A stretch of 64,000 nucleotides of DNA from assembly GCA_025558095.1 (NCBI GenBank), contig JAIVFI010000033.1, positions 1 to 64,000 on the forward strand, read 5' to 3'. Source of the DNA: Hyaloraphidium curvatum SAG 235-1 (Eukaryota; Fungi; Monoblepharomycota). Positions 31,348-52,462 of the stretch are shown one piece after another. The notes below the pieces were generated by a model that was not told the DNA's origin, made no database searches, and saw only the letters and a list, made by a program, of their open reading frames with translations. Within the stretch, counting starts at the first letter, position 1. Every line of letters begins with the position of its first letter. The translations under genes were made by a program, and so were the position numbers.

Positions 31348-34179
31348 TTACGTTATGCACCCGTACTCCGCCAGCAGCCCCTCTATCCGCTCCTTCCCGA
31401 ACGGCTTGGAGATGGCCCCGTCCGCCCCGCACCGCGCCCACTCCTGCTCCGGCCCCGCGCCCACCTGGTTCGCCGTGGTGATCACCACCGGCATCTCGTG
31501 GTACGCCTTCCCACCGGGTCCCACCAGCGTCCCGGCGCTCGGCGCGTTGCTCGCCGCGGGCAGCCTCGCCGAACCCTCGGCGAGCAGCCCCCTGATCTCG
31601 CGGGTGGCAGCGTACCCGTCCATCACCGGCATCACAATGTCCATCAGCAGCAGCGCGTACTCCCTCCCCCCCTCCGCATCCCTTCGCACCGCGTCCACCG
31701 CCTCTCGGCCGTTCTCCGCCTCGTCCACGCGCCACTCGTCCACCCGCGCGCCGCGGCGGTCGAGGATCGAGCGCAGCATGCGGACGAGGATGCGGCGGTT
31801 GATGGCCGAGTCGTCCGTGACGAGGATGCGGCGCACGCGGGGGGGAGGGGCGTCGGCGTCGTCCTCCGGCGTGGCGGGTTCGGGCTCCGCTGCCGCCGCG
31901 ACCGCCGACACCGGCGCCTCCCCCGGTCCCGGTTCCGCCCGCGCGAGCTGCACCATCTCCGGCGCAGCCACCATCTCTCGCTCCCCATCAGCGGGTTCCG
32001 GTTCCGCGCACTCCCTCAGGGGTATCCAGAACGCAAACTCGGTCCCCACCCCCACCTCGCTCTCGGCCCCGATCTCGCCCCCCATCAGCGCCACGATCTG
32101 CGCCGCGATCGCCAGCCCGAGCCCGGACCCGCCGTAGTCCCTCGCGGTGCTCGCCGAGGCCTGCGTCCAGGGCTGGAACAGCGTGCCGAGGACGTCGGGG
32201 CGGATGCCGATGCCCGTGTCGCGGCACGAGATGCGGAGGCAGTCCCGCGGGGGTTCGTCGACGGCGACGAGGGTCGAGTCCGAGGGCGGTTTGCGCGGGG
32301 GCATGGGTTGCCGCGCCACGGTCAATGAAACGGAGCCGCCGGGCTTGGTGAACTTGAACCCGTTTGAGAGGAGGTTGTTGACGACCTGCTGCAGACGGAG
32401 GGGGTCGCAGAGCACGTGGCTGGGCACGTCGGGCGCGACGGAGAAGGAGAAGCGGATGCCCTGGGTGCGGGAGGTCTCGCCGGCCATGGTGGCCACGGTC
32501 TCGAGGAGCGCGCGCAGGTCGACGGGCAGGCTTTCGAGCTTGACGGCGCCGGATTCGAAGCGCCCGGCGTCGAGGACGTCCGAGAGGAGGGCGAGCATGT
32601 AGGTCGTGCATAGGTGGATGGCGCGGAGCGGGTCCGCGTCCTCGTCGGTGCGCGCAACCAGCTCCGACGCGTCCACGTCGCGCGGGAAGCCGGTCGGCGA
32701 TTCGAGGGGCAGCGACGACGCGGGCCGCACGGGGAGCAGCGCCGCGCGCTCCTCCATGAGCGTGTCCGCAAGGTTGCTCACCGCATGCAAGGGGTTGCGC
32801 AGCTCGTGGCACAGGAACCCGATGAAGTTGGCCTTGTCTCTGTCCGCACGCTCGGCGGCCAGCCTGGCCTCGCGGAGCTGCGCCGTGCGCACGCGGACCT
32901 GCTCCTCGATGCTCTCCCGCGCACGCCGCACGGCGGCGAGCATGTCGCAGAAGACGAGGGCGGTGAAGACGCTGACGGCCACGCAGACCTGCGTCCAGAC
33001 GAGGTGGTCGACGAGGGCGTTGAGAGGCGGGCGCGGGGTGAGGTTGGCGTTGGTGAGAGGGATGACTGGAAAGGGGGAGCATGAGGACCGCTTCCCGCGC
33101 GGCGGCCCACAGCATTGGTACGCACCGGTGATGGAAATCACGCCCAGCACCATGCAGCAGAACGTCGCCCCACGTATGCCCGTGATCCATGCGGCCAGGA
33201 GGATGAGCGGCTGGCTCAGGAACAGCCCGACGATGGTCGCGAGGATGATAAAGTCGTGTATGTACAGGCTCATGAGCAGCGGTACCGCAACGAGCAGCAC
33301 GACGATGAGCGCCGACCCCGCCGTGCGCCACGGGTGGCGAGTGAAGGTGCGGAGGGTGGGGGGCACCCGCACGACGGTCATGACGAAGGGGGCGAATGCG
33401 ACGACGGGCCCGATGTCGAGCCAGCGCAGGAACATCGACTGGTACGTGGTCGTGTCCTGCATGTTGCGCAGGACGAGCATGACCTGGGCGTAGAGCGCGT
33501 TGCACGGCCAGACGAACGCCGTGCCGATGGCGAAGGCGGCCACGTGCCACGCCTTGGACAGGTCCACGGGGACGCCCGGCCGGCGCGAAAAGACCGAGGC
33601 GCAGAAGAGGGTTGTGTGCGCGACGAGGAGGATTTCGAGGAGGTTCACGCCGGCCAGGCCGGCGGCCAGGGTGGCAGCCTTGCCGCCGATGTAGTACGAG
33701 GCGACGAAGTTGGTGAGGTAGGTCGCCGGCGGCAGCAGCAGCCTCGCGCGCCACGACAGGCCGCACACGGCGCCGATCATGATGCCGTTGGGCAGCCAGG
33801 CGCCGGAGAACTCGAACTCTGCGTAGAAGCGGCGGTTCACGGCGACGCAGGCGGCGAACAGGCAGCAGAAGAAGACGGTGGCGGCGGCGGCCTTGAGCCA
33901 CTCTGTGCGGCGCGCCGGCGGGGAGGGCGTGCCGGTGCCGGGCGGGGGGGCGAGGCCGAGGCACGCGGCGACGGTGCGGGCGGTCCACGCGATGGGCGGC
34001 GGCTTCTCCCTCGAGAGCGGCCCCTCCTCGCCGAGCGACACCAGCGAGTCGCTGTCCCACACGCGCGACGACGTGACCGAGCCGGAGAGCCGCGGCTCCG
34101 TGGGCGGCGCGCCGGCGGGCGCGGGCGGTGCCGCGGGGGCCGCGCCGGCCGGCCGCGCCGCGCCGCCGTCCGCGCCCAT
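31348..34179 (-). CDS. Membrane hybrid histidine kinase (MASE1-like sensor, HisKA, HATPase, receiver)
   Basis: WLPNG plus many TM segments; CHELRNPL; DPLRLQQVVNNLLSNGFKFT; DTGIGI; GGSGLGL; receiver ILVTDD..LMDIVMPVMDG..TA..KP. Probable in-frame intron near 33075-33120. Confidence 0.93.
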   Translation of the reverse strand: MGADGGAARPAGAAPAAPPAPAGAPPTEPRLSGSVTSSRVWDSDSLVSLGEEGPLSREKPPPIAWTARTVAACLGLAPPPGTGTPSPPARRTEWLKAAAATVFFCCLFAACVAVNRRFYAEFEFSGAWLPNGIMIGAVCGLSWRARLLLPPATYLTNFVASYYIGGKAATLAAGLAGVNLLEILLVAHTTLFCASVFSRRPGVPVDLSKAWHVAAFAIGTAFVWPCNALYAQVMLVLRNMQDTTTYQSMFLRWLDIGPVVAFAPFVMTVVRVPPTLRTFTRHPWRTAGSALIVVLLVAVPLLMSLYIHDFIILATIVGLFLSQPLILLAAWITGIRGATFCCMVLGVISITGAYQCCGPPRGKRSSCSPFPVIPLTNANLTPRPPLNALVDHLVWTQVCVAVSVFTALVFCDMLAAVRRARESIEEQVRVRTAQLREARLAAERADRDKANFIGFLCHELRNPLHAVSNLADTLMEERAALLPVRPASSLPLESPTGFPRDVDASELVARTDEDADPLRAIHLCTTYMLALLSDVLDAGRFESGAVKLESLPVDLRALLETVATMAGETSRTQGIRFSFSVAPDVPSHVLCDPLRLQQVVNNLLSNGFKFTKPGGSVSLTVARQPMPPRKPPSDSTLVAVDEPPRDCLRISCRDTGIGIRPDVLGTLFQPWTQASASTARDYGGSGLGLAIAAQIVALMGGEIGAESEVGVGTEFAFWIPLRECAEPEPADGEREMVAAPEMVQLARAEPGPGEAPVSAVAAAAEPEPATPEDDADAPPPRVRRILVTDDSAINRRILVRMLRSILDRRGARVDEWRVDEAENGREAVDAVRRDAEGGREYALLLMDIVMPVMDGYAATREIRGLLAEGSARLPAASNAPSAGTLVGPGGKAYHEMPVVITTANQVGAGPEQEWARCGADGAISKPFGKERIEGLLAEYGCIT

Positions 34180-35246
34180 CGCGGTGCGAGAAGCGAGCTG
34201 CGTCTGCGCGAGCGCCGTGCCCGTCCGCCGGGGATGGCCGGTGGCCAGGTGCGGAGGAGGACGGCCGGCCGATCTGGCTCCCGCGGCCCGGATTACGTCA
34301 GGCGCAAAGCCTACCGCCCGCGACAGCTGATTGCCGCGCCGGACGCCTTGTCGCGAGGCCGAAAAGCGGCGGAGTGAGGTGGATCGGCGGCCAACCAGAT
34401 TTGCCGATGGCCTCCGCGGCCCCGCGCCGGGGACGGAGGCGGAGGACGCTGACCTAGGGACCTTTGCGCAGCGATCGGGGAAGGACATCAAGGACACTGC
34501 ACAGCAGCACAAAAAGGTCTGCCTTCCGGGGCGGGCTCGCTGGGGAGGATCCATCGGCCGCCACGGGGACCTCCGAGGCAGAGCGACGGGCGCCGCGCTT
34601 GGGCTTGCACGGCTGTAGGAGCCGGACGTCGCAAAGCCGCCGGTCGCTACGGGATCGACGGCCCTTCTTCCGTCCGACGATGGTCCCTGTACGTCACGCA
34701 GACGCGCAGATCGATCTAGTTTGGTGGCCCGCCACCCGCACCGGCACTCCGCACAACCAGAAACGCCGACGCACAACCCACCCCTGGTCAAATTCCGCTC
34801 ATGAAGTCTCGAGTCCAATCGCACGGATCGCCCCGAAGCGGCACCCCTCCCGAGTTTCCAGTTATCTCCGACGACAGGCCGAAGAAAGCTTCGGCGGAGC
34901 AAGAAGCACCTGGCGTTCGCCCGCGAGGACCGGGGACGCAAGGATGGTGACGGTGGCCAAGACCCCTTCGGACAAAAGAGCGGGGCGCAACGCGATGGCG
35001 CAGATCCGGCGCGTCGTTGGGGGGCTTTCCGGATGACTGAAGCGCGGGCTGTGATGCAATATACCCTTCATCGACCATCCACGTCACTTTCGCACGTCAG
35101 AAACCCGAGAGCGCCCCATATGCCCGTGTCCCTAGCCTTGCCGGGGACAATCTTGCCGGTAGTTAAAAGGTGATGCTTTGCGATATTTGATACGTGGCGA
35201 CTTATAATGATGACCTTCCCTCCGAACTCAGGAGCTCCCCAATGAT

Positions 35247-39605: not shown

Positions 39606-40532
39606 TCAGATCCGCTGATCCGTCTCCTCGACCACCTCCCTGCCCTCGAAGAAGCAGAGCTGCGCCCTCTGCGTCCTCTCCGGGGTCCTCAGCCCCCCGC
39701 ACACGAACCTCGCCGCCTCCCTCGGCGCCCGGTCCCCCTCCGCGCACTCGATCAGCATCGCGACCAATTTCCAGCCCGTCTGCGCGACCACAGAGGCCTG
39801 CGCGGACCCCAGGAATGTCAGGCGGGGCGACATCCAGTTCGCGGGGTCCCGGGCGAGCGTGGCCTTGAGGTCCAGCGCGAAGCCGCCGCTGTGGCAGCTG
39901 TCCGTCACGACAAACACCTCGCCGCAGCATCGTGCGAGCAGGGCTGCGATATCGGCGCCGCCCGTTGCGCCGTACGAGCCCAGCGACCAGTGCGAGTTGC
40001 CGTCCGCGGGGTGCCCGTGCCCTCCCAAGTAGAGGAACAGAACCTGCCCCGGTCCCACCGTCTCGACGCAGTCGGCCAGGGTCGCCAGGATCGCCCGCGA
40101 GGTACACTGCCGCTCCAGTAGCATGTACACGTTCTCCTGCGGTATGCCGTGCCGCCGCATCAGCCCTTCGACGAAGCGGATGTCGTTCCGCTGCGCCGGG
40201 TCCGCGGGGCCGGCGAGGCACGCCACGTAGACGAAGATGTCCTTGCCCTTGCGCCCTCCGAAAAAGCCACTGCGGTCGCCCAGGGCCGCGTCGGGACAGG
40301 GGCACGTCCGGACGCAGCGCTTCCGCCCCCTGCACGCCGCGGTGCCGCAACCCCCCGGCCCGTCCGCGGGGTGCTTCCCGCGACAGGCGGGATGGGCGTG
40401 TCCGGGACAGCCCGGGCAGTCGGCCACGCAGAGGTCCAGCCCGCGGCACGGCTCGTTGCCGCAGCCCTTCTTGCCGTCTACAGGGTGGTCGCCGCGGCAT
40501 AACGGGCTCGCGGTGCCGTTCACCGGGGCCAT
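39606..40532 (-). CDS. Caspase-clan (CD; C14/C13-like) cysteine peptidase with N-terminal tandem Cys/His repeats
   Basis: LFLYLGGHG and VFVVTDSCHSGG give the His-Cys dyad; HGIPQENVYML..CTSRAIL precedes them. Single exon. Confidence 0.8.
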   Translation of the reverse strand: MAPVNGTASPLCRGDHPVDGKKGCGNEPCRGLDLCVADCPGCPGHAHPACRGKHPADGPGGCGTAACRGRKRCVRTCPCPDAALGDRSGFFGGRKGKDIFVYVACLAGPADPAQRNDIRFVEGLMRRHGIPQENVYMLLERQCTSRAILATLADCVETVGPGQVLFLYLGGHGHPADGNSHWSLGSYGATGGADIAALLARCCGEVFVVTDSCHSGGFALDLKATLARDPANWMSPRLTFLGSAQASVVAQTGWKLVAMLIECAEGDRAPREAARFVCGGLRTPERTQRAQLCFFEGREVVEETDQRI

Positions 40533-42926: not shown

Positions 42927-43608
42927 TCAGACGACCGCGGCGCCCACAGGCACCTCCGTCTGCTGCGTCGGGGCCCGCCGCGACTTTCCAGCTTGCCAAC
43001 TGCCCAGCATTCTCAGCCATTCGTACCCCTCCGACTGAATGTCCAGGGAGACGATCCGCTTGATCTTGCCGTCGGCGTTGAAGACGAGGCTGAGGAAGGA
43101 CGTCGGAGGCCCTGGGAAAGCGTCGTGAATGGGGACGATCTTTCCCGCCACCGCGGGGGTGTGCACCTTGCCGCCCACGACGTCGAGACCTTGCAGGCCC
43201 AGGGAGAACCACTCCCGTATGACGTGTGCGATCGGATCTGTGGATGCTTCGCAGCTTAGCATCCATCGTTAACTCACTTCGGGTTCGGGAGCGGCACAGA
43301 CCTTTCCCGATGAGGCCATTTCCCGACGAGCCGTAGTGCTCGGCTGCAGGTACAGAACCGGGAAAAGATCAGAAGCAGAAGCGGGCATGGCCATGGACCC
43401 ACCGTCGTCGGCGAGCAGCTCCGCAAACGCCTCCGGCCCCTTCTCCAGCGCCGTGCGCACCCTTTCGAACCCCCTCCTTCGCAGCAGGATGTCCGTCGGG
43501 GGGAACCTGCGAGACCTTGGCCTTGTGCTCGCGCAGGGCGTCCGCCCATTTCCTTGTGCCCAGCGCGTCCGGGAATGCCTTGATCTCGTCCTTGAGCGCG
43601 TTGCTCAT
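42927..43608 (-). CDS. Hypothetical protein, weakly NTF2/SnoaL-like (about 3 exons)
   Basis: Segments MSNALKDEIKAF.., ALEKGPEAFAELLADDG.. and SFLSLVFNADGKIKRIVS are separated by intron-like gaps. Confidence 0.45.
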
Positions 43609-43860
43609 GCGGCCGAGCCGAGCTGCGTGCCGCGTCAGCGACCTGAAACACGACATGACAGCAAACGGAGCCCACCCCAGCAATCCGCATTCAGACCACG
43701 CGGGCAACAATGGTGCACGTGGAATGAACAGCTTTGTCAGGGTCCAGACTCGTTTCGCCGAGGTCGAGTCGGTGGCGGAGATCGGGATGGTGGGAGACGG
43801 CGGGGACCGAGTGCGGAATGTTCGAGCGCCGCCCGCGCTCACCCCACTCCGATCCCATAG

Positions 43861-44687
43861 CGGTCGGCTGCAAGCGCATCTGCGTGGACACCAACTACTA
43901 CGAGACCTGTGGGCCCCCTGTTACCGCCGCAGGGATGCCTCCCTGACTCGCTTGTGGCCGCAGACAACCTCCCCCACGTCAAGCTCGTTTCGGTCAAATC
44001 CAACGCCATCACCGACGTCGGCGGCCCCTCGGGCCTGATCACCCTGGCCGACGGCACCACCTACGGCCCCTTCGACGTGATCGTCTCCGCGACGGGCTTC
44101 GACGCCCTCACCGGCGCCATCATGCGGATCAACATCACCGGCCGGGACGGGCTGACGATCAAGGAGGCGTGGGAGGCAGGGCCGGTCAACTACCTTGGCC
44201 TTTTCGTCCGCGGGTTCCACAACATGTTTATCGTCACGGTGGGTTCTGGGCGGGGATGCGGGCCGGCGTGCGGGTGCTGATTGGCGCGCGCGCTGGACGG
44301 CAGGGTCCCGGATCCCCTGGCGTGCTCACCTGCATGATCAACTCGATCGAGCATCACTCGGAATGGATCCTCAGCAGGTGCATCCTCGACATGGAACGCG
44401 ACGGTGTTGCGCGGATCGAGGCGACACAGGAGGCCCAGGACGGCTGGGTCGGCCACGTGAACGCCGTCGCGGACGGGACCCTGTTCCGGTCGTGCGCGAG
44501 CTGGCATTTAGGGGCCAACGTAGCAGGCAAGCCGAGGGTCTTTAGTGGGTGCTCATCCCGCCTGCGATGGAAGTGAATTTGACTCGACTCGCGATCAGTG
44601 CCCCTGATCGGGCTTCCGGACTACGTCGTGCGGTGTGCCGAGGTGCAGGAGAACGGGTACAAATGCCTCGAGCTGACTGCCGCCTAG
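43861..44687 (+). pseudogene. 3' half of a Baeyer-Villiger monooxygenase (CHMO/PAMO type), 5'-truncated
   Basis: GCKRICVDTNYYET, ATGFDALTG, T|GPGSPGVL, SWHLGANVAGKPRVF|MP, with three introns. No N-terminal FAD motif or FxGxxxH fingerprint upstream, and the next gene is about 250 bp away. Confidence 0.75.
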
Positions 44688-44895
44688 AATGTTTCCGTTG
44701 CGCAATAGATCTCACAGCCTCAAAACCACCGCAGTTTGCAAGATGTTGATCCGGCGCCGCCGAAGCGCGAGTAGGCGAAGGCAACCTATGACTGGAGGCA
44801 ATGAAAAAGCCGAGCAACTACCGGGGCCTCAAAAAGCTTACACTAGGCAACGGCAATGACGGTATGGGCTAGGCCGGGTTGGGAGACGCGCAGCC

Positions 44896-45140
44896 AGGGG
44901 GTGTACCGGACCATGCAGAGCATAAGCCCGGCAACTGGGTGACGCGGCGGCGCCGGGTGCGCGCGCGATCGGCGGGACGGGCTGTTGTTGATAGTGTCGA
45001 AGAATCGATGGCTTTTGTAGGACTGTAGCTCGATGCCACCAGGTGGCGCATCTGGGATCGATGCTGGGAGCGCCGCGGCGCCCGAGCTTGCCGCTCTGGT
45101 TACACACGGCCTTTGCGCTACCTCGTGCTCGATCCGCCGG
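44896..45140 (+). repeat. Direct repeat copy 1 (about 240 bp) of 46909-47150
   Basis: Visibly near-identical to the last codons and 3' flank of the 45457-46953 gene (ggtgtacc..accatgcagagcat..gcgctacctcgtgctcgatccgcc). Confidence 0.92.
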
Positions 45141-45456
45141 CGAACACAATGGAAACCCCCGATGGAAGCCAAGGGCTGCCGGTGCAGGATGACAAGACCG
45201 ACCCGGGGCCGTTCCCCTCGTCCAACTTCCCCCTCTGCCTCTGCCTATGGTAGGCATCGTGGTCGCACGAGGGTTGTTCTCCGTAGAATCGTGAGGCGAC
45301 AGGGGACGTAACTCAGATCTCTATCACAGGCGCGACGAGTCATCCGGCCCCGCCGAAGCCCGAGAGAAGGCAACGACCACCTAAGACCGGAGGCAATGAA
45401 AAGATCTTGGAACGCGCGGCAACAGCGATTACCAGGACGCTCGGCGCGGGAGACAA

Positions 45457-46953
45457 ATGGCGCTGTCCGACAAGACGGTGGACCGCACGGCCCTTGCGGC
45501 GCTCCTGCCGGAGGCGGCGTGGCTGGCCGTCCTCCCGCGGGCGCCGCCGGGCCCTGGGCCACGAGGCACGGCGGTGCGCGACCCCGCGGGGCCTGCGCGC
45601 GCCGACGCGCCGATGACCGCCCCGGTGCTGCTCGCCGGGCTGTCGGAATCCTCTCCGATCCTCGCCGCCGCCGCACGGGTGCAGCTTTTCCTGGCGCCGT
45701 TCGCGAGGCACACCATTGCGCGCAATGCTGCGTGGTTCGTCTCCTTCATCCCGCTGCTTGCCCTACCGTGGGTGTTCAACGACGGGTCTTTTGGCACAAA
45801 GGAGCTCGCCGTCGGCACCGCCACCGTGTGCTTCGGGATGCTTGGAGCTACTATGGGGCTTGCCATCTTTGCCGCCTACGGGGCGTCGCTGAGCGTGGCC
45901 CCGGATTACTCGACCCACGCGGCCGCAGGCCTGGTCCGCTGGGTCCAGATGACGAAAGGAAGGATGCCGACGGACCACGGCTTTATCGATCTCCCCCTGT
46001 CGCCCTTGCTCGAGCATCAGGACGGCGATCCGCACTGTCCGTGCAGCAAACAGTCCTGCGCGGGCGGGATTCCGGTTCGGGCCGGGTGGCTGCTCGGCTT
46101 CGAGATCGGGTTCAAGCTTTGCTACACGCTGGCAAATGTGCTCCTCATCAGCTGGACACCGCTGGCGTACCCAAATATCGCGCGTTCGGTGTGGACGACG
46201 CCGTGGCCTGCTTTCTTCGGCGCCTTATACTGGGCTGTGGGTATCTTCGCCATAGTTGCGCCCGTATGCCTCGTCAGGTTTTCCCACAACGTGGCCATGC
46301 TCCGCCTCGCGGAACGCGTTGAGTCCCATGCCATGAACCTCGCCCTGGACTCGATGCTGTCGCCCTACCGGACCGCCGCGGCTTCCGGCCCCTCACACTT
46401 CGACGCCGATGCGCTCCCGCCCCGCCCCGCCGCTTTCGACCTGTACGCCCTCTTTGCTGCGGAATGGCAGCGCCGCGTCCGCCAATTCAACGCCTCCTCC
46501 CCCATGATCGTCTCCACCTCGTGCATGCTTGTCGGCGCGATCCTGAACCCCATTTTCTGTTCCTGCATCCCGGCCCTCTACCTCATGTACATCGGCTACA
46601 ACGGCCTCATGCAGCTCATCGACCTCGTCAACGTGGCCGCGGCCAACGCGACTATCGACCGCATCCGCGGGCAGCTCCTCGACGCCCTCCGCGAACTCCG
46701 GGAGCTGCGCCGGGAGCTCGTCCGCACCGCGCCGCCCGCGCTCCTGGCCCTGCTCGACTCGGACGCCGACGCGCTGGCGCCCTTCCTGGACGTCGAGCGG
46801 TTTCGCGCGAGGCTGTTGGGGATCCCGGTGGTCTACGGCGTGGTGCGGACGCTGCTGGTGACCGTTTTCACGCTTGCCGTGGGGCTGTGGTCCATTCTGA
46901 GGGGACTGGGGGTGTACCTGACCATGCAGAGCATATGCCCGGCAACGGGGTGA
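45457..46953 (+). CDS. Seven-transmembrane protein, candidate gustatory-receptor-like (7TMIC) channel
   Basis: Single 498-aa ORF with seven hydrophobic segments and C-terminal FRARLLGIPVVYGVVRTLLVTVFTLAVGLWSIL. The CDS is well supported; the family call is inference. Confidence 0.75.
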   Translation: MALSDKTVDRTALAALLPEAAWLAVLPRAPPGPGPRGTAVRDPAGPARADAPMTAPVLLAGLSESSPILAAAARVQLFLAPFARHTIARNAAWFVSFIPLLALPWVFNDGSFGTKELAVGTATVCFGMLGATMGLAIFAAYGASLSVAPDYSTHAAAGLVRWVQMTKGRMPTDHGFIDLPLSPLLEHQDGDPHCPCSKQSCAGGIPVRAGWLLGFEIGFKLCYTLANVLLISWTPLAYPNIARSVWTTPWPAFFGALYWAVGIFAIVAPVCLVRFSHNVAMLRLAERVESHAMNLALDSMLSPYRTAAASGPSHFDADALPPRPAAFDLYALFAAEWQRRVRQFNASSPMIVSTSCMLVGAILNPIFCSCIPALYLMYIGYNGLMQLIDLVNVAAANATIDRIRGQLLDALRELRELRRELVRTAPPALLALLDSDADALAPFLDVERFRARLLGIPVVYGVVRTLLVTVFTLAVGLWSILRGLGVYLTMQSICPATG

Positions 46954-47150
46954 CGCGGCGGCCCCGGAAGTGCGCGCGATCGGCGGGACGGGCTGTTGTT
47001 GATAGCCGAGGAATCGATGGCTTTTGCGGAACTGAAGCTCGATGCCGCCAGGTGGAGCATGTGGGATCGATGCTGGGAGCGCCGCCGCGCCCGAGCTTGC
47101 CGCTCTGGTTCCACACGACCTTTGCGCTACCTCGTGCTCGATCCGCCAGC
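46909..47150 (+). repeat. Direct repeat copy 2 (3' end of the 7-TM gene plus 3' flank)
   Basis: Matches 44896-45140. Confidence 0.92.
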
Positions 47151-47172: not shown

Positions 47173-48327
47173 TCACACGGTCTGCAGCGCCGCCAGCAAC
47201 CCGTCCATCGCCGCCCTCGCCCTTTCCACCGCCTCCTCCCACCACACCCCCGGATGCTCCGGCTCCTTCCCGTGCGGCCCCGAGACGAGGACCAGCTCCC
47301 CGTCCGCGTTCAGGTCCACGTACTGCCCGCTTTCGACCCGCGCGGCGGAGTGGTCCGCGTCCGCGGGGGCAAGGAAGGGCTGTTCGAGGGCTTCGCGGGC
47401 GGTTATGCGGGTTTCGGGGTGCGGGTCCAGGGTGGCGCGGAGGAACGCGCGGGCGGCGGGGGACAGCGCCGCGGGGAGGTCCAGCGCGCCGCCGGCGATC
47501 CGGTTGTAGAGCTCCAGCAGGCTCGCCGAGTCGGAAAAGGGGGTCCGTCCCGTGAGGAGGAAGTGCGCGGTACAGCCGGCCGCCCAGACGTCCGCGCCGG
47601 GGCCGTACGGGAGGCCCAACACGAGCTCGGGGGAGAGGAAGTACGGCGTTCCGGTGAATGTGGAGCGGGAAATGGGGGCGGGGGGCGGGAACGCGCCGCG
47701 GGGGGAGGTTGCGACGAGCGTCTGCTCCGATTCGAGGCGCTCCGAGGGGAGCTTGCCGTCGTCAGGGGGCGGCAGCGGGCCGACGTGGGCCGAGCCAAAG
47801 TCGCCGAGGCAGAGGGAGGAGGCAGGGTGGCGGGCGTCGCGGATCAGGATGTTTGCGGGCTTGAGGTCGCGGTGGGCGACGCCCGCGGCGTGCAGGCCGG
47901 CCAGGGCGGAGAACACCGAGACGAGGATGGCCGACGCCTCGGGCTCGGGGAGCGCGCCGCCCCTGCTCGCCACGTACTGCGCCAGGTCCATCCCGCAGTG
48001 CTCGAACACGAGGTAGTGCGACGAGGGCGTCTCGAAGTCGTCCACGAGCGGCAGCACGAGGTGCCGCCAGCCGTCCGCGCCGGGCAGCTCCGCCACGCGC
48101 CGCCGCACCGCGAGCTCCGCCGCCACGCCGACCGCCGCCGCGCCGGGCGACGCCGGCCCCGCTCCGCCCCCCGCCCGCTCGCACTTCTTCACTGCCCGGA
48201 GCCGCGCGGTTGGAACATGGAGCGCCAGCCTCACCGTCCCCTGCGCGCCGCCCCCGAGCACGCCGAAAAACAGGTATTCCCGACGTTTCGCCCGCCCTTC
48301 GGCAAAGGGATCGGCGCCGATGGGCAT
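47173..48327 (-). CDS. Ser/Thr protein kinase
   Basis: LGGGAQGTV, AVK, HRDLKPANIL, DFG, GTPYFLSPE, DVWAAG. The start is approximate. Confidence 0.9.
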   Translation of the reverse strand: MPIGADPFAEGRAKRREYLFFGVLGGGAQGTVRLALHVPTARLRAVKKCERAGGGAGPASPGAAAVGVAAELAVRRRVAELPGADGWRHLVLPLVDDFETPSSHYLVFEHCGMDLAQYVASRGGALPEPEASAILVSVFSALAGLHAAGVAHRDLKPANILIRDARHPASSLCLGDFGSAHVGPLPPPDDGKLPSERLESEQTLVATSPRGAFPPPAPISRSTFTGTPYFLSPELVLGLPYGPGADVWAAGCTAHFLLTGRTPFSDSASLLELYNRIAGGALDLPAALSPAARAFLRATLDPHPETRITAREALEQPFLAPADADHSAARVESGQYVDLNADGELVLVSGPHGKEPEHPGVWWEEAVERARAAMDGLLAALQTV

Positions 48328-48627: not shown

Positions 48628-50055
48628 TCACGTCGTCTGACCGCCGTTGTCGTACAGCTCCCCGAGCCCCGGCGGCATCTCCCCACCAAAGAACCCCCCC
48701 CAATCGACCCTCTTCCGCCCCTCCGGCCCGTTGCCCCCGGCCCCGACGACCCCGGGATACACCCTCCTCGCACGCGGGTGCCTCCCCGCGGCGAACCTCT
48801 GCGCGGCGACCCACCTCTGCACCACCCCGCGGCCGTACGCGCGCACCGAGTCCCCGTACATCGCCGCGGCGATCGACTCCCTCCCCCGCGCGGCGATCCG
48901 CCCCGCGAGCCCGGGATTGCCGCGGAGCATCCGCACCGTCGGGGCGAGCGCGTCCAGGCGGCCGTCGCAGGGGACGTAGTCCCGCCAGGGGACGAGGAAA
49001 TGGTCGTACCATTCGCGGCACGGGGAGAGCTGCCTCACCGTGCAGGTGCCCAGGGCCAGGAGGAGGCGGAGGCGGTCCGCCCAGCCGCAGTTGCCTTCCA
49101 CGTGGAGCGCGATGCGGTACGAGGCGAAGCGCGAGGCGGGCATGGATTCCGGGGGGGTGCCGCGGTACCTTTCCGGGGCAGTTGCGTTGGGAAGGGAGGG
49201 GAAGATGAGGGGGAAGCCGCGGAGGTTGACGTCCAGGGAGGAGGGGTCCGCGAGGGCGAGTGCGAGGAGGCGCTGCCGGCCGGCGATGCGGGGGAAGTTC
49301 TCCGGGGTGATGGCGACGGCGGCCGGGGCGGCGCCGCCGCAGGAGGAGGGGTGGGCGAGAAGCGCGGCGACGTCGGAGGAGGAAGCCAGGTGCGCCAGGG
49401 TAGCGTTGATGTCCGTGGCCGTGCCCCCCTCGCCGCAGCCGAAGCTCGTCCTCCCTGCGGGGGTGCCCCGGAAGACGGCCCTGTTTGCCCGCTCCTCCCA
49501 GGGCGGCGGCGGAATCTCCAGGGCCGGCGGCCTCCACTGCTCGCCCGGCCGCGGCACCGCGCCGTCGACGGCGTGCCTGAAGACGGCCACGGGCACCGAC
49601 AGGTTCGAGCGCCCGCAGGCGACGAGCGAGAGCACCGGGCCCGCGGCCTCGTCGCAGTCGCCCATGCCGAAGCGCATGTCGGCGTCGGGCTCGCCCGGCC
49701 CGTCGGGGAGCGCCAGCAGCGCGTTCGCGAGCCGGACGAGCGCCGGCGGCCACCTCCACGGCGACGTTGCCGAGAGGAGCTGGTCCGCGGGCGGGACGAC
49801 GAGGTGCCACGCGCCGCCGAGGCGCTGCACGCGGAACGCCTCGCGGCCGTCGTCAAAGTCGGACGGCCGGATCCCCCGGGCGGAGATGGCGGCAAAGTGC
49901 GCGTCGAGGACCGCGGAGATGGCCTCGGCGGGGAGCCGCGGGGGGCGCGTGCGTGCGGGCGGCGGCGGGGGCACCGGCAGCGCGGGCAGCGCAACAAACA
50001 GCAAGAGCAGCAGGCAGGCAATCGCGCGGGCTGTCCGCCAGTACACATCTGGCAT
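48628..50055 (-). CDS. Glycosyltransferase family 90 (CAP10/Cxt1/POGLUT-like)
   Basis: Type II anchor; PPWEERANRAVFRG; YRIALHVEGNCGWADRLRLLL; EWYDHFLVPWRDYVP; IAARG. Confidence 0.88.
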   Translation of the reverse strand: MPDVYWRTARAIACLLLLLFVALPALPVPPPPPARTRPPRLPAEAISAVLDAHFAAISARGIRPSDFDDGREAFRVQRLGGAWHLVVPPADQLLSATSPWRWPPALVRLANALLALPDGPGEPDADMRFGMGDCDEAAGPVLSLVACGRSNLSVPVAVFRHAVDGAVPRPGEQWRPPALEIPPPPWEERANRAVFRGTPAGRTSFGCGEGGTATDINATLAHLASSSDVAALLAHPSSCGGAAPAAVAITPENFPRIAGRQRLLALALADPSSLDVNLRGFPLIFPSLPNATAPERYRGTPPESMPASRFASYRIALHVEGNCGWADRLRLLLALGTCTVRQLSPCREWYDHFLVPWRDYVPCDGRLDALAPTVRMLRGNPGLAGRIAARGRESIAAAMYGDSVRAYGRGVVQRWVAAQRFAAGRHPRARRVYPGVVGAGGNGPEGRKRVDWGGFFGGEMPPGLGELYDNGGQTT

Positions 50056-50181
50056 TTTGGTGGGACCGCGGGTGCGGGTTGCGGGAGCGGGCCGTCTGTT
50101 GGCTATCGTAGTTGCAAGAAGGGGCGGCCGACATCGATTAGACCATCCAGACATCGAGTCCATCGAAGCAGGCCCGCATCC

Positions 50182-51657
50182 TCATCCCCCTCCCTCCACC
50201 GCCCGCCCCACCTCCTCCCACAGCGCCCCCCACTCCTCCACCCTCGCGCTCGTACCAGCCTCCCCCTCCAGCCTCCTCACCCTGCCCACCGCCCCCTCGT
50301 CCACGACCGCGCAGTGCTCCCCGTCGGCCCTCCTCTCCCACGCCACCGGCTCGTCCACCCACGCCTCGAACGGCCCCGCCCCCGCGCGGGAGGACGGGCC
50401 CCAGGGCGCGAACCCCCCGTTCCAGTACAGCAGCCGCGGCGCCCCCTCCCCGGGCACCGCCGCCAGATGCGCCTGCTTGGCCGCGCTGCACAGCCGCGGG
50501 GCATCCTGCGCCGGTGCGGGCAGGGCGGGGCGGCACGGGTCCCCCGCCCTGGGGGAGCGCGGCCGCGAGGAGAAGCTCCCGATCGCGGCGATGGGGTGCG
50601 GGGAAAACGCGTAGCTCGCGTTGGCCGAGACGGCGCCGGCGAGGTGCCATCCCATCCACCACGCCTCCTTGTCGCCGTGGGTATGCGCCAAAAGGCCGTG
50701 CCGCGCGCGGGTGGACGCCAGCGCGGCGGCGCCGACGAGGCCGCGCAGCACGGCGGGGCGGCGCAGGTCCAGGAGCACGGCGGAGGACGACATGTCGTGA
50801 AAGGATGCGCCCGTTGCGAGGGGGCGGCGGAGGAGGGCGGCGCGTTCCGCGGGGGAGGGGTTGGGGGGGAGGAGGGAGCGGAGGAAGGCGCGTTGGTGGG
50901 GGCGGCCGCGGCACATTGCGTGGCGGTCCCGCTGGAAGAGGGTGCCTGATTCGGTGTAGAGGGGGTCGGAGAAGAGGAGGGCGGGGGTCAGGAGGAAGAC
51001 GCTGTCGGCGTCGAGCACGAGGACCTCGGCAAAGGAGGAGGCGAGGGCGGCAAAGATCTTGGCGCCGAAGCGCCTGCCCACCGACGCCGGGGCGATGCCC
51101 GTTGGGTCGAAGACGTCCGCGAGCGAGCGCACGTCCAGCGTCAGGTTGAGCTTTGCCGCGGCGCCCTTCAGGTTTCCGACGTCCAGCTCGCCGCCGCCGA
51201 GGTGCCACATCTCGAGCGGCAGGTCCGTCAGCCTCCCGAGGTGCGCGGCCAGAAACAGCGCGTGCCGCAAGTGCCGGTCCGCCAGCGGCACCACGATGCC
51301 GCGTTTGCTGCGCCGGGTGGGGTCCAGCAGCCCGCCGAGGCCGCTTTCTGGCCCGAGGAACGGCAGCAGCACGCGGGCTTCCGCCTCGCGGCCGGCCAGC
51401 CCCGCTGTCCGCCCGCCGTGTGCCGCTCCCCGCCCGCCCTCCCAGCCGTCCAGCAGCGCCCGCAGCCGCACCCCCAGAGCCGCGTGGTGCGCCAGCGGCT
51501 CCCCCTCGGGCGTCAGCGGCGGTGGGGCGACCCCGACCCCGACCACTCCGCCTTCCCCGGCCCCGCCCCCGCCGTCCCGCCCCCGCGACATCAGCCCGAG
51601 CCACGCGAGCAGCACGCAGGCCGCGTGGAATGCCGCGCGGAGGACGGGCGGCCGCAT
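50182..51657 (-). CDS. Glycosyltransferase family 71 (Mnn1/Mnn2-like alpha-mannosyltransferase)
   Basis: Type II anchor; RGIVV; LPLEMWH; AKIFAALASSFAEVLVLDADS (DxD); P..LF..Y...GTLF..D; HGDKEAWW. Confidence 0.9.
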   Translation of the reverse strand: MRPPVLRAAFHAACVLLAWLGLMSRGRDGGGGAGEGGVVGVGVAPPPLTPEGEPLAHHAALGVRLRALLDGWEGGRGAAHGGRTAGLAGREAEARVLLPFLGPESGLGGLLDPTRRSKRGIVVPLADRHLRHALFLAAHLGRLTDLPLEMWHLGGGELDVGNLKGAAAKLNLTLDVRSLADVFDPTGIAPASVGRRFGAKIFAALASSFAEVLVLDADSVFLLTPALLFSDPLYTESGTLFQRDRHAMCRGRPHQRAFLRSLLPPNPSPAERAALLRRPLATGASFHDMSSSAVLLDLRRPAVLRGLVGAAALASTRARHGLLAHTHGDKEAWWMGWHLAGAVSANASYAFSPHPIAAIGSFSSRPRSPRAGDPCRPALPAPAQDAPRLCSAAKQAHLAAVPGEGAPRLLYWNGGFAPWGPSSRAGAGPFEAWVDEPVAWERRADGEHCAVVDEGAVGRVRRLEGEAGTSARVEEWGALWEEVGRAVEGGG

Positions 51658-51797
51658 GGGTGCGTGCTGGCGTCGCACAAACAAGAGGCGGCCCAGCCGC
51701 CAAGGGCTGGAGCCCCAGGACCCAGGCAAGCACCAACGGCCCAATGAGGAACGGCAAGGCCGTCGGCCGCAAAAGAACTTCGGCATCGTGGACACGG

Positions 51798-52462
51798 ACT
51801 GCAAAGCGAAATTGCGGCGCACATTGCGACCCCGTGGTTCGACAAACGCGCTCCTGACTCGGCCGGCCTTTGAAGCCTCGTCGAGTCCACCTTGGACAGC
51901 GGCGCCTCGCATGCCCCCCCATCCTCACCCGTTCTCGGGCGCCGGCAGGTACCCCCACCCCTTCACCGTCCACAGCATGCGCCCCGGGCACGCGGCCCAG
52001 CCCACCTCCCTCGCGCGCTGCGAAAAGGTGCTCCGCCGCGTCGCCAGCGCCCTCGCCGCGCACCCCAGGAGGAGCTGGTCGAGCACCGACGCCGCCGCGT
52101 GGTCGCGCTGGATCGCGGCGTTCCGCTTCATGTTGGCGGGGGCGGTCGGGGGTGGGGAGGAGAAGATCGGGGAGAGGAGGGGGTGCGACCGGAGGCGCGG
52201 GAGGAAGAGCACCGCGGGCGGCGGGTCGGGGGGCGAAAGCCGTGCGAGGTCGGCGCGGAGGAGGTCCCACGTGGAATGTCGGGCATCGCCGCCGATCAGG
52301 AGCACCGCGCGCTCGCGGGGAGTACGACGCCGCCAGGCCTCGGCGGCGGGGAAGGTGCCGGGGACGAAGAGGTCCACGTCGCAGCCGGGCTTGTCTTTGC
52401 CGACCGCCTTGCGGGTGACTTCGCAGGTGTCTCAAAGTCTGCGGAGCAGACGTGCGCGGAGA
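51798..52462 (-). pseudogene. Partial duplicate (about 665 bp) of the 3' end and 3' flank of the O-fucosyltransferase gene (55356-56031)
   Basis: Near-identical DNA encoding AVLLIGGDA...DQLLLGC...RRSTFSQR...PAPENG*. It has a 1-nt indel near 52430 and no 5' part. Confidence 0.9.

Follow-up and report, generated by a model that had tools for sequence, protein, structure and literature searches.

A single-exon gene of the fungus Hyaloraphidium curvatum SAG 235-1 encodes a membrane protein with the predicted fold of the seven-transmembrane ion channels (7TMICs), to which the insect gustatory and odorant receptors (GRs and ORs) belong. The gene lies in the 64,000-nucleotide stretch of contig JAIVFI010000033.1 analyzed here (the window), and its product is probably one subunit of a tetrameric ligand-gated channel, by analogy with insect receptors, within a large set of paralogs that would differ in their ligands. 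Its frame (45457-46953, forward strand) is stop-free over 498 amino acids, and the translation contains all peptides quoted in an earlier note on this DNA. GC content at codon positions 1, 2 and 3 is 0.66, 0.51 and 0.85. The earlier note had described a fungal protein of 7TMIC-like architecture with seven hydrophobic segments, no signal peptide, a very short loop between transmembrane segments (TM) 5 and 6, a long charged helix after TM6 and a hairpin ahead of a split TM7; these points are borne out, and its inference of a divergent fungal chemosensory ion channel is supported. Seven segments appear in the query and again when hydropathy is averaged over 124 aligned relatives, and the first 35 residues are non-hydrophobic family-wide (windowed mean hydropathy at most 0.34). 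The TM5-TM6 loop has four residues, followed in the model by an unbroken helix (residues 373-421). The model divides TM7 into two helices, 427-444 and 460-483, with a two-strand hairpin (452-457) around G455 between them. The gene and its segments are as follows.

45457..46953 (+), single-exon open reading frame (ORF) for the 7TMIC-fold membrane protein (P0001), 498 amino acids, with an RNA-type contig (45642-48073) that has no joint
45712..45774 (+), TM1, residues 86-106 (hydropathy and model)
45796..45870 (+), TM2, residues 114-138 (hydropathy and model)
46081..46155 (+), TM3, residues 209-233 (hydropathy and model)
46207..46272 (+), TM4, residues 251-272, then a cytoplasmic helix, 279-310 (family hydropathy and model)
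46429..46560 (+), long TM5 helix, residues 325-368, of which about 348-368 lie in the membrane (family hydropathy and model)
46561..46572 (+), extracellular loop 3 (EL3), four residues modelled as a strand, among them the invariant C370
46573..46719 (+), long TM6 helix with predicted anchor-domain extension, residues 373-421, with invariant N397
46735..46788 (+), TM7a, cytoplasmic, residues 427-444 (model)
46810..46827 (+), predicted beta-hairpin splitting TM7, around G455, which is conserved in 98%
46834..46905 (+), TM7b, predicted pore helix, with a stripe of T465, T469, T472, G476 and S479, and R464 and R482 at its ends
46906..46950 (+), predicted extracellular tail, with a strand at 487-489 and C494 at 46936-46938

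We analyzed topology and conservation in 97 near-full-length family members. Loops on the N-terminal side have median lengths of 73, 75 and 66 residues, and those on the opposite side 7, 15 and 4; in 95 of the 97 the N-terminal side also has the greater density of lysine plus arginine. This positive-inside bias predicts an intracellular N-terminus, as the earlier note had expected, and an extracellular C-terminus. A G protein-coupled receptor (GPCR) or rhodopsin-like protein was considered and rejected, since charge bias and structure search revealed neither an N-out topology nor GPCR packing. The longer intracellular than extracellular loops are a trait of 7TMICs, as are, in the model, the extension of TM4-6 into the cytoplasm (helices 249-272 plus 279-310, with TM4 interrupted by a short loop, 325-368 and 373-421) and the division of TM7 into 7a, hairpin and 7b. 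Two further helices (55-65 and 67-83) fall within the ranges aligned to GR/OR N-termini, where a re-entrant loop (TM0) would lie, as judged from the ends of the structural alignments. TM1-4 have a column entropy of 3.0-3.1 bits, versus 1.7 bits for TM7b, matching the variable N-terminal helices and conserved C-terminus given as the 7TMIC pattern by Himmel et al. (10.1101/2023.08.30.555482). TM7b alone has five positions with at least 60% Ser/Thr/Gly (465, 469, 472, 476 and 479), which lie within an 80-degree arc; its hydrophobic moment by itself falls short of significance (p 0.11). In a mutual-information analysis, N-terminal pairs that are probably artefacts of gaps outweighed all others.

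A Foldseek comparison with insect receptors, as proposed in the earlier note, yielded GR and OR matches that cover all seven helices over 297-342 residues. Local alignments to known 7TMICs have TM-scores of at most 0.47, against a threshold of 0.5 for the superfamily, and an accepted member of the superfamily also scores 0.47. The query has no Pfam match at E<=1, and the 97 members produced seven chance-level matches, each in a single member, with none to DUF3537 (PF12056), 7tm_7, 7tm_6 or Trehalose_recp. Searching the PDB by sequence returned no match for the query at E<=10 and four non-significant matches for the family profile. A tetramer prediction with four copies of residues 250-498, made with the alignment unused, scored 0.06 with an uncertain subunit fold and weighs neither way. 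Atlas neighbours, found with low recognition, include ciliate clusters (0.92), TMEM39B (0.91 and 0.86), and DUF3537 and 7tm_7 (0.83-0.88). A 7TMIC-like fold of TMEM39 is a lead only, as the recognition is low. A BFVD search gave full-length, non-significant matches to uncharacterised giant-virus proteins of 440-580 amino acids, from Catovirus CTV1 (A0A1V0SCD1; E 0.078, probability 0.98, TM 0.35), Edafosvirus (A0A3G4ZRZ0), Yasminevirus (A0A5K0UB49) and Mimivirus LCMiAC02 (A0A4D5XEV6). These score like insect GRs in Foldseek and may be viral 7TMICs; the accessible text of Himmel et al. has no mention of viruses.

We investigated the size of the family with HMMER. Among 1.84 billion representatives, 324 clusters at 50% identity matched at E<=0.001 (78 at E<=1e-30), and with so many relatives the family signal is not due to chance. 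Our counts concern 150 listed matches, 174 being unlisted, and a non-random sample of 30 that were looked up. Of these 30, 24 are recorded as H. curvatum proteins, the query locus among them, on contigs of 19 different lengths, and six are metagenome or sequencing-run records, all of which fell among the nine matches of one look-up set picked for atypical composition or short length. Matches listed that cover at least 380 profile positions number 116, and 21 of the 22 looked up belong to H. curvatum, which gives a Wilson lower bound of about 90 genes. The paralog count suggested in the earlier note therefore stands at no fewer than 24 H. curvatum genes among the matches listed, and we estimate 90-300 copies. 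All H. curvatum members looked up, the query's closest relatives included, are annotated as hypothetical protein. Pairwise identity has a median of 27% and a maximum of 66%, so the members are not alleles. Relatives also occur outside H. curvatum, four of them in the query's clade in a quick FastTree tree of 152 proteins. A word-seeded homolog search returned 2, 3 and 0 proteins, far below HMMER, and is unfit for judging the family's range; metagenome DNA scans with two members (P0002 and P0154) found no loci, and a profile search found no second full paralog within the window. Six members (P0027, P0044, P0084, P0095, P0106 and P0121; 634-788 amino acids) have extra or repeated segments outside the profile and may be fusions or merged gene models.

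We compared the predicted pore helix with that of BmGr9, whose hydroxyl rings are made by T429 and T436 and whose gates are I440 and F444, with Q443 swinging in upon opening (PMC11100771). T465 and T472 have the same seven-residue spacing as the two BmGr9 threonines, and, judged from the alignment end points, the outer gate falls at I480 or L481, give or take one residue. The inner-gate position of the family is Gly/Ala in the BmGr9 register. The TYhhhhhQF motif, which the earlier note regarded as partly matched, is kept in its threonine (T472, 98%) and lost elsewhere: the 97 members have Val/Leu for Tyr, Ser/Gly/Thr for Gln and Val/Ile/Leu for Phe, and the motif of the strict insect GR family is absent from TM7b. 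The gustatory receptor-like proteins (GRLs) of Spizellomyces also largely fail this motif, keeping one of its four positions (PMC7746228). In the mechanism we propose, the long TM4-6 helices and TM7a would build the anchor, and four TM7b helices would, as in insect receptors, line a central pore through their Thr/Gly/Ser stripe, with closure near I480/L481. By the same analogy, the variable TM1-TM6 helices would enclose the binding site of a small molecule, which would shift TM5, a helix coupled to TM7b, and separate paralogs would answer to separate ligands. R464 (94%) and R482 (90%) flank TM7b in the 97 members, and we speculate that they affect ion selectivity.

Two conserved sites distinguish the family, the first of them in intracellular loop 1 (IL1).

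46015..46059 (+), H187, C194, C196 and C201 with D191, cytoplasmic loop IL1, likely zinc site (alignment)

The earlier note had rightly located an HCPCSKQSC motif in the TM2-TM3 loop; the conserved histidine, as the family alignment establishes, is H187 and not H193 of the quoted peptide. H187, C194, C196 and C201 occur jointly in 121 of 124 aligned sequences, are invariant in all 97 near-full-length members, and recur as a His-Cys3 pattern in 132 of 151 proteins, fragments counted. Because they form a His-Cys-Cys-Cys ligand set, it is likely that they bind zinc in the cytoplasm. The second site is a cysteine pair, C370 and C494, present together in 116 of the 124 sequences and predicted on the outer face, with short strands modelled at 370-372 and 487-489. 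The pair likely forms an extracellular disulfide, which would tether the TM5-TM6 loop to the end of the pore helix; in GRs, S5-S7b coupling drives gating (PMC11100771; PMC12635824). At columns 326, 330, 337 and 436 of the anchor region most members have conserved Tyr, His, Trp and His; in the query these positions are Ala, Tyr, Trp and Asp. These columns possibly form a second metal or assembly site that the query has lost.

A protein of this fold need not be an external chemoreceptor. It could be a constitutively open or internally regulated pore or a protein of an organelle membrane, as is conceivable for PHTF- and DUF3537-type members, and its zinc site might then act as a redox or metal sensor. 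Several points weigh somewhat against a chemoreceptor and for this alternative: small residues replace the hydrophobic inner gate and the gating Gln, the 73-residue IL1 is a Class-B/PHTF trait, the host is non-motile, and the Atlas, at its low recognition, ranks ciliate clusters (0.92) and TMEM39B (0.91) above DUF3537 (0.88). A housekeeping pore, however, does not account for dozens of paralogs that are 27% identical, vary in TM1-4 and conserve TM7b, and we regard this alternative, the main rival, as less likely than the chemoreceptor reading. The outer-face cysteine pair fits the secretory pathway or the cell surface and separates neither reading. Considerably less probable is an unrelated seven-helix family that converged with 7TMICs on a long three-helix bundle, as the GR/OR matches extend over all seven helices and 297-342 residues, versus 132-161 for matches to the bundle. 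Split TM7, hairpin glycine, loop lengths, topology and threonine rings moreover agree in order, and the GRL1 hairpin of Spizellomyces, in the accessible sequence and judged by eye, is like family positions 453-459.

The public gene model (P0008) truncates the receptor locus to 143 amino acids. We reproduced it exactly by starting at 45838 and removing the following GT..AG interval.

46189..46255 (+), 67-nucleotide intron assumed by the public model, frameshifting, unspliced in the RNA-type contig; its removal would delete a conserved stretch from extracellular loop 2 (EL2) to TM4

Removing this intron would shift the frame and delete residues 245-267. In sequencing run X1 one contig spans 45642-48073 without a joint, and four introns of the upstream gene are spliced. 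We treated X1 as RNA because of these spliced joints, no listed run being recorded as RNA; its contigs carry neither strand nor level, rare forms are dropped, and the contig concerned also extends over a convergent kinase gene. The query matches the family profile with 500 bits across positions 11-492 of 505. Because of this near-full-length match, and because the contig is unspliced across the supposed intron, the 498-residue reading is much the better. Directly upstream of the gene lie two pieces of a dead duplicate.

44749..44807 (+), decayed tandem copy, 5' piece, with 82% identity to 45342-45402, which precedes the start codon of the gene
44897..45141 (+), decayed tandem copy, 3' piece, with 91% identity to 46908-47150, which holds the gene's final codons, its stop and the DNA that follows

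This copy has Ser at the C494 codon, its remaining coding region is missing, and it fits birth-and-death turnover. That the locus yields only the 143-residue product, or is itself a decaying copy, draws on the public GT..AG splice, on the adjoining duplicate and on departures of the query at R291 (97% conserved), Y326 and H330, and is most improbable in view of the open 498-residue frame, the unspliced contig (strand unknown) from a run with four spliced introns upstream, and seven departures at 52 conserved columns, equal to the family median of 7.

Other genes of the window were noted in passing. The upstream gene (43500-44714, forward strand) has four introns spliced in X1, one joint being CT..AC as placed by the tool, and one exon matches Baeyer-Villiger/flavin monooxygenases (E 5e-17). 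The convergent gene (47173-48327, reverse strand) encodes a protein kinase (PF00069, E 3.6e-37), and about 220 bases separate its 3' end from the receptor stop, a single RNA-type contig covering both genes. Two adjacent glycosyltransferase genes follow (48628-51912, reverse strand), of family 90 (PF05686) and of a mannosyltransferase family (PF11051). A hybrid histidine kinase ORF (31348-34554, reverse strand; HisKA, HATPase_c and receiver) is another sensory gene. A 308-residue ORF (39606-40532, reverse strand) without a Pfam match combines a repeated, cysteine-rich N-terminus with His-Gly and Asp-Ser-Cys-His motifs, which we take to be reminiscent of caspase-like peptidases.

Returning to the channel reading, we tentatively suggest that H. 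curvatum independently expanded its 7TMICs to an insect-sized set of one to three hundred receptors. These may form a distinct subfamily, defined by a cytoplasmic zinc site, a disulfide between TM5-TM6 loop and pore helix, and a Thr/Gly pore with Arg caps, which perhaps gates or selects ions unlike insect receptors. If so, this would be the first large family of chemoreceptor-type ion channels to be described in fungi, as far as our searches reach. The fold itself is known. Neither the expansion nor the added sites seem to have been described before, though the sequences may sit in the supplement of Himmel et al. The main text of that preprint, as accessible, names no Hyaloraphidium, Monoblepharids, Gonapodya or zinc, and a literature search, with most subscription papers outside its scope, turned up no publication about this family or about any expansion of 7TMICs in a fungus. 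Although 7TMICs occur across life, their function is known almost only in insects. The first-described fungal 7TMICs are single genes, and dozens to hundreds of divergent copies are the pattern of ligand-diversified sensors. A cultured organism with many natural variants makes the role of non-animal 7TMICs testable, and the invariant His-Cys3 site, the cysteine pair and the altered pore stripe are direct targets for mutagenesis. H. curvatum has neither flagellum nor rhizoids and forms four to eight spores inside the mother cell (PMC6899921, PMC8371127), and it is a puzzle what a non-motile cell would sense via so many channels.

We finally compared the family with known systems. Among fungi, 7TMICs are also found in Chytridiomycota and Blastocladiomycota (Himmel et al.), and Spizellomyces punctatus (SpunGRL1) and S. 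palustris (SpalGRL1) have one gene per genome (Benton et al. 2020, PMC7746228). These chytrid GRLs likewise come from early-diverging fungi, have 7TMIC topology and keep one of four TM7 motif positions, and the hairpin of Spizellomyces GRL1, by eye, resembles family positions 453-459. They differ in being single genes, versus at least 24 in H. curvatum, and the His-Cys3 motif is not visible by eye in the first 400 of about 425 printed residues. Plant DUF3537 (PF12056) and PHTF-like Class-B 7TMICs belong to the same superfamily by predicted fold and share the long IL1; in contrast, the fungal family lacks a Pfam match, and plant families have 4-12 members (PMC7746228). The insect GRs and ORs (Gr43a, BmGr9, MhOR5, AaegOR10, AgamOR28 and Orco) share with the Hyaloraphidium family the predicted fold of seven helices with an intracellular N-terminus, short outer loops, long TM4-6, a split TM7 with hairpin, threonine rings on the pore helix, a conserved C-terminus with variable N-terminal helices, and a large divergent gene family. 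Identity between them is 5-12%. The fungal family is set apart by the absence of the TM7-motif Tyr, Gln and Phe, a Gly/Ala inner gate, Arg at both ends of TM7b, a 73-residue IL1 with His-Cys3, a 15-residue outer tail with a conserved Cys, and chains about 100 residues longer than those of the solved insect receptors.
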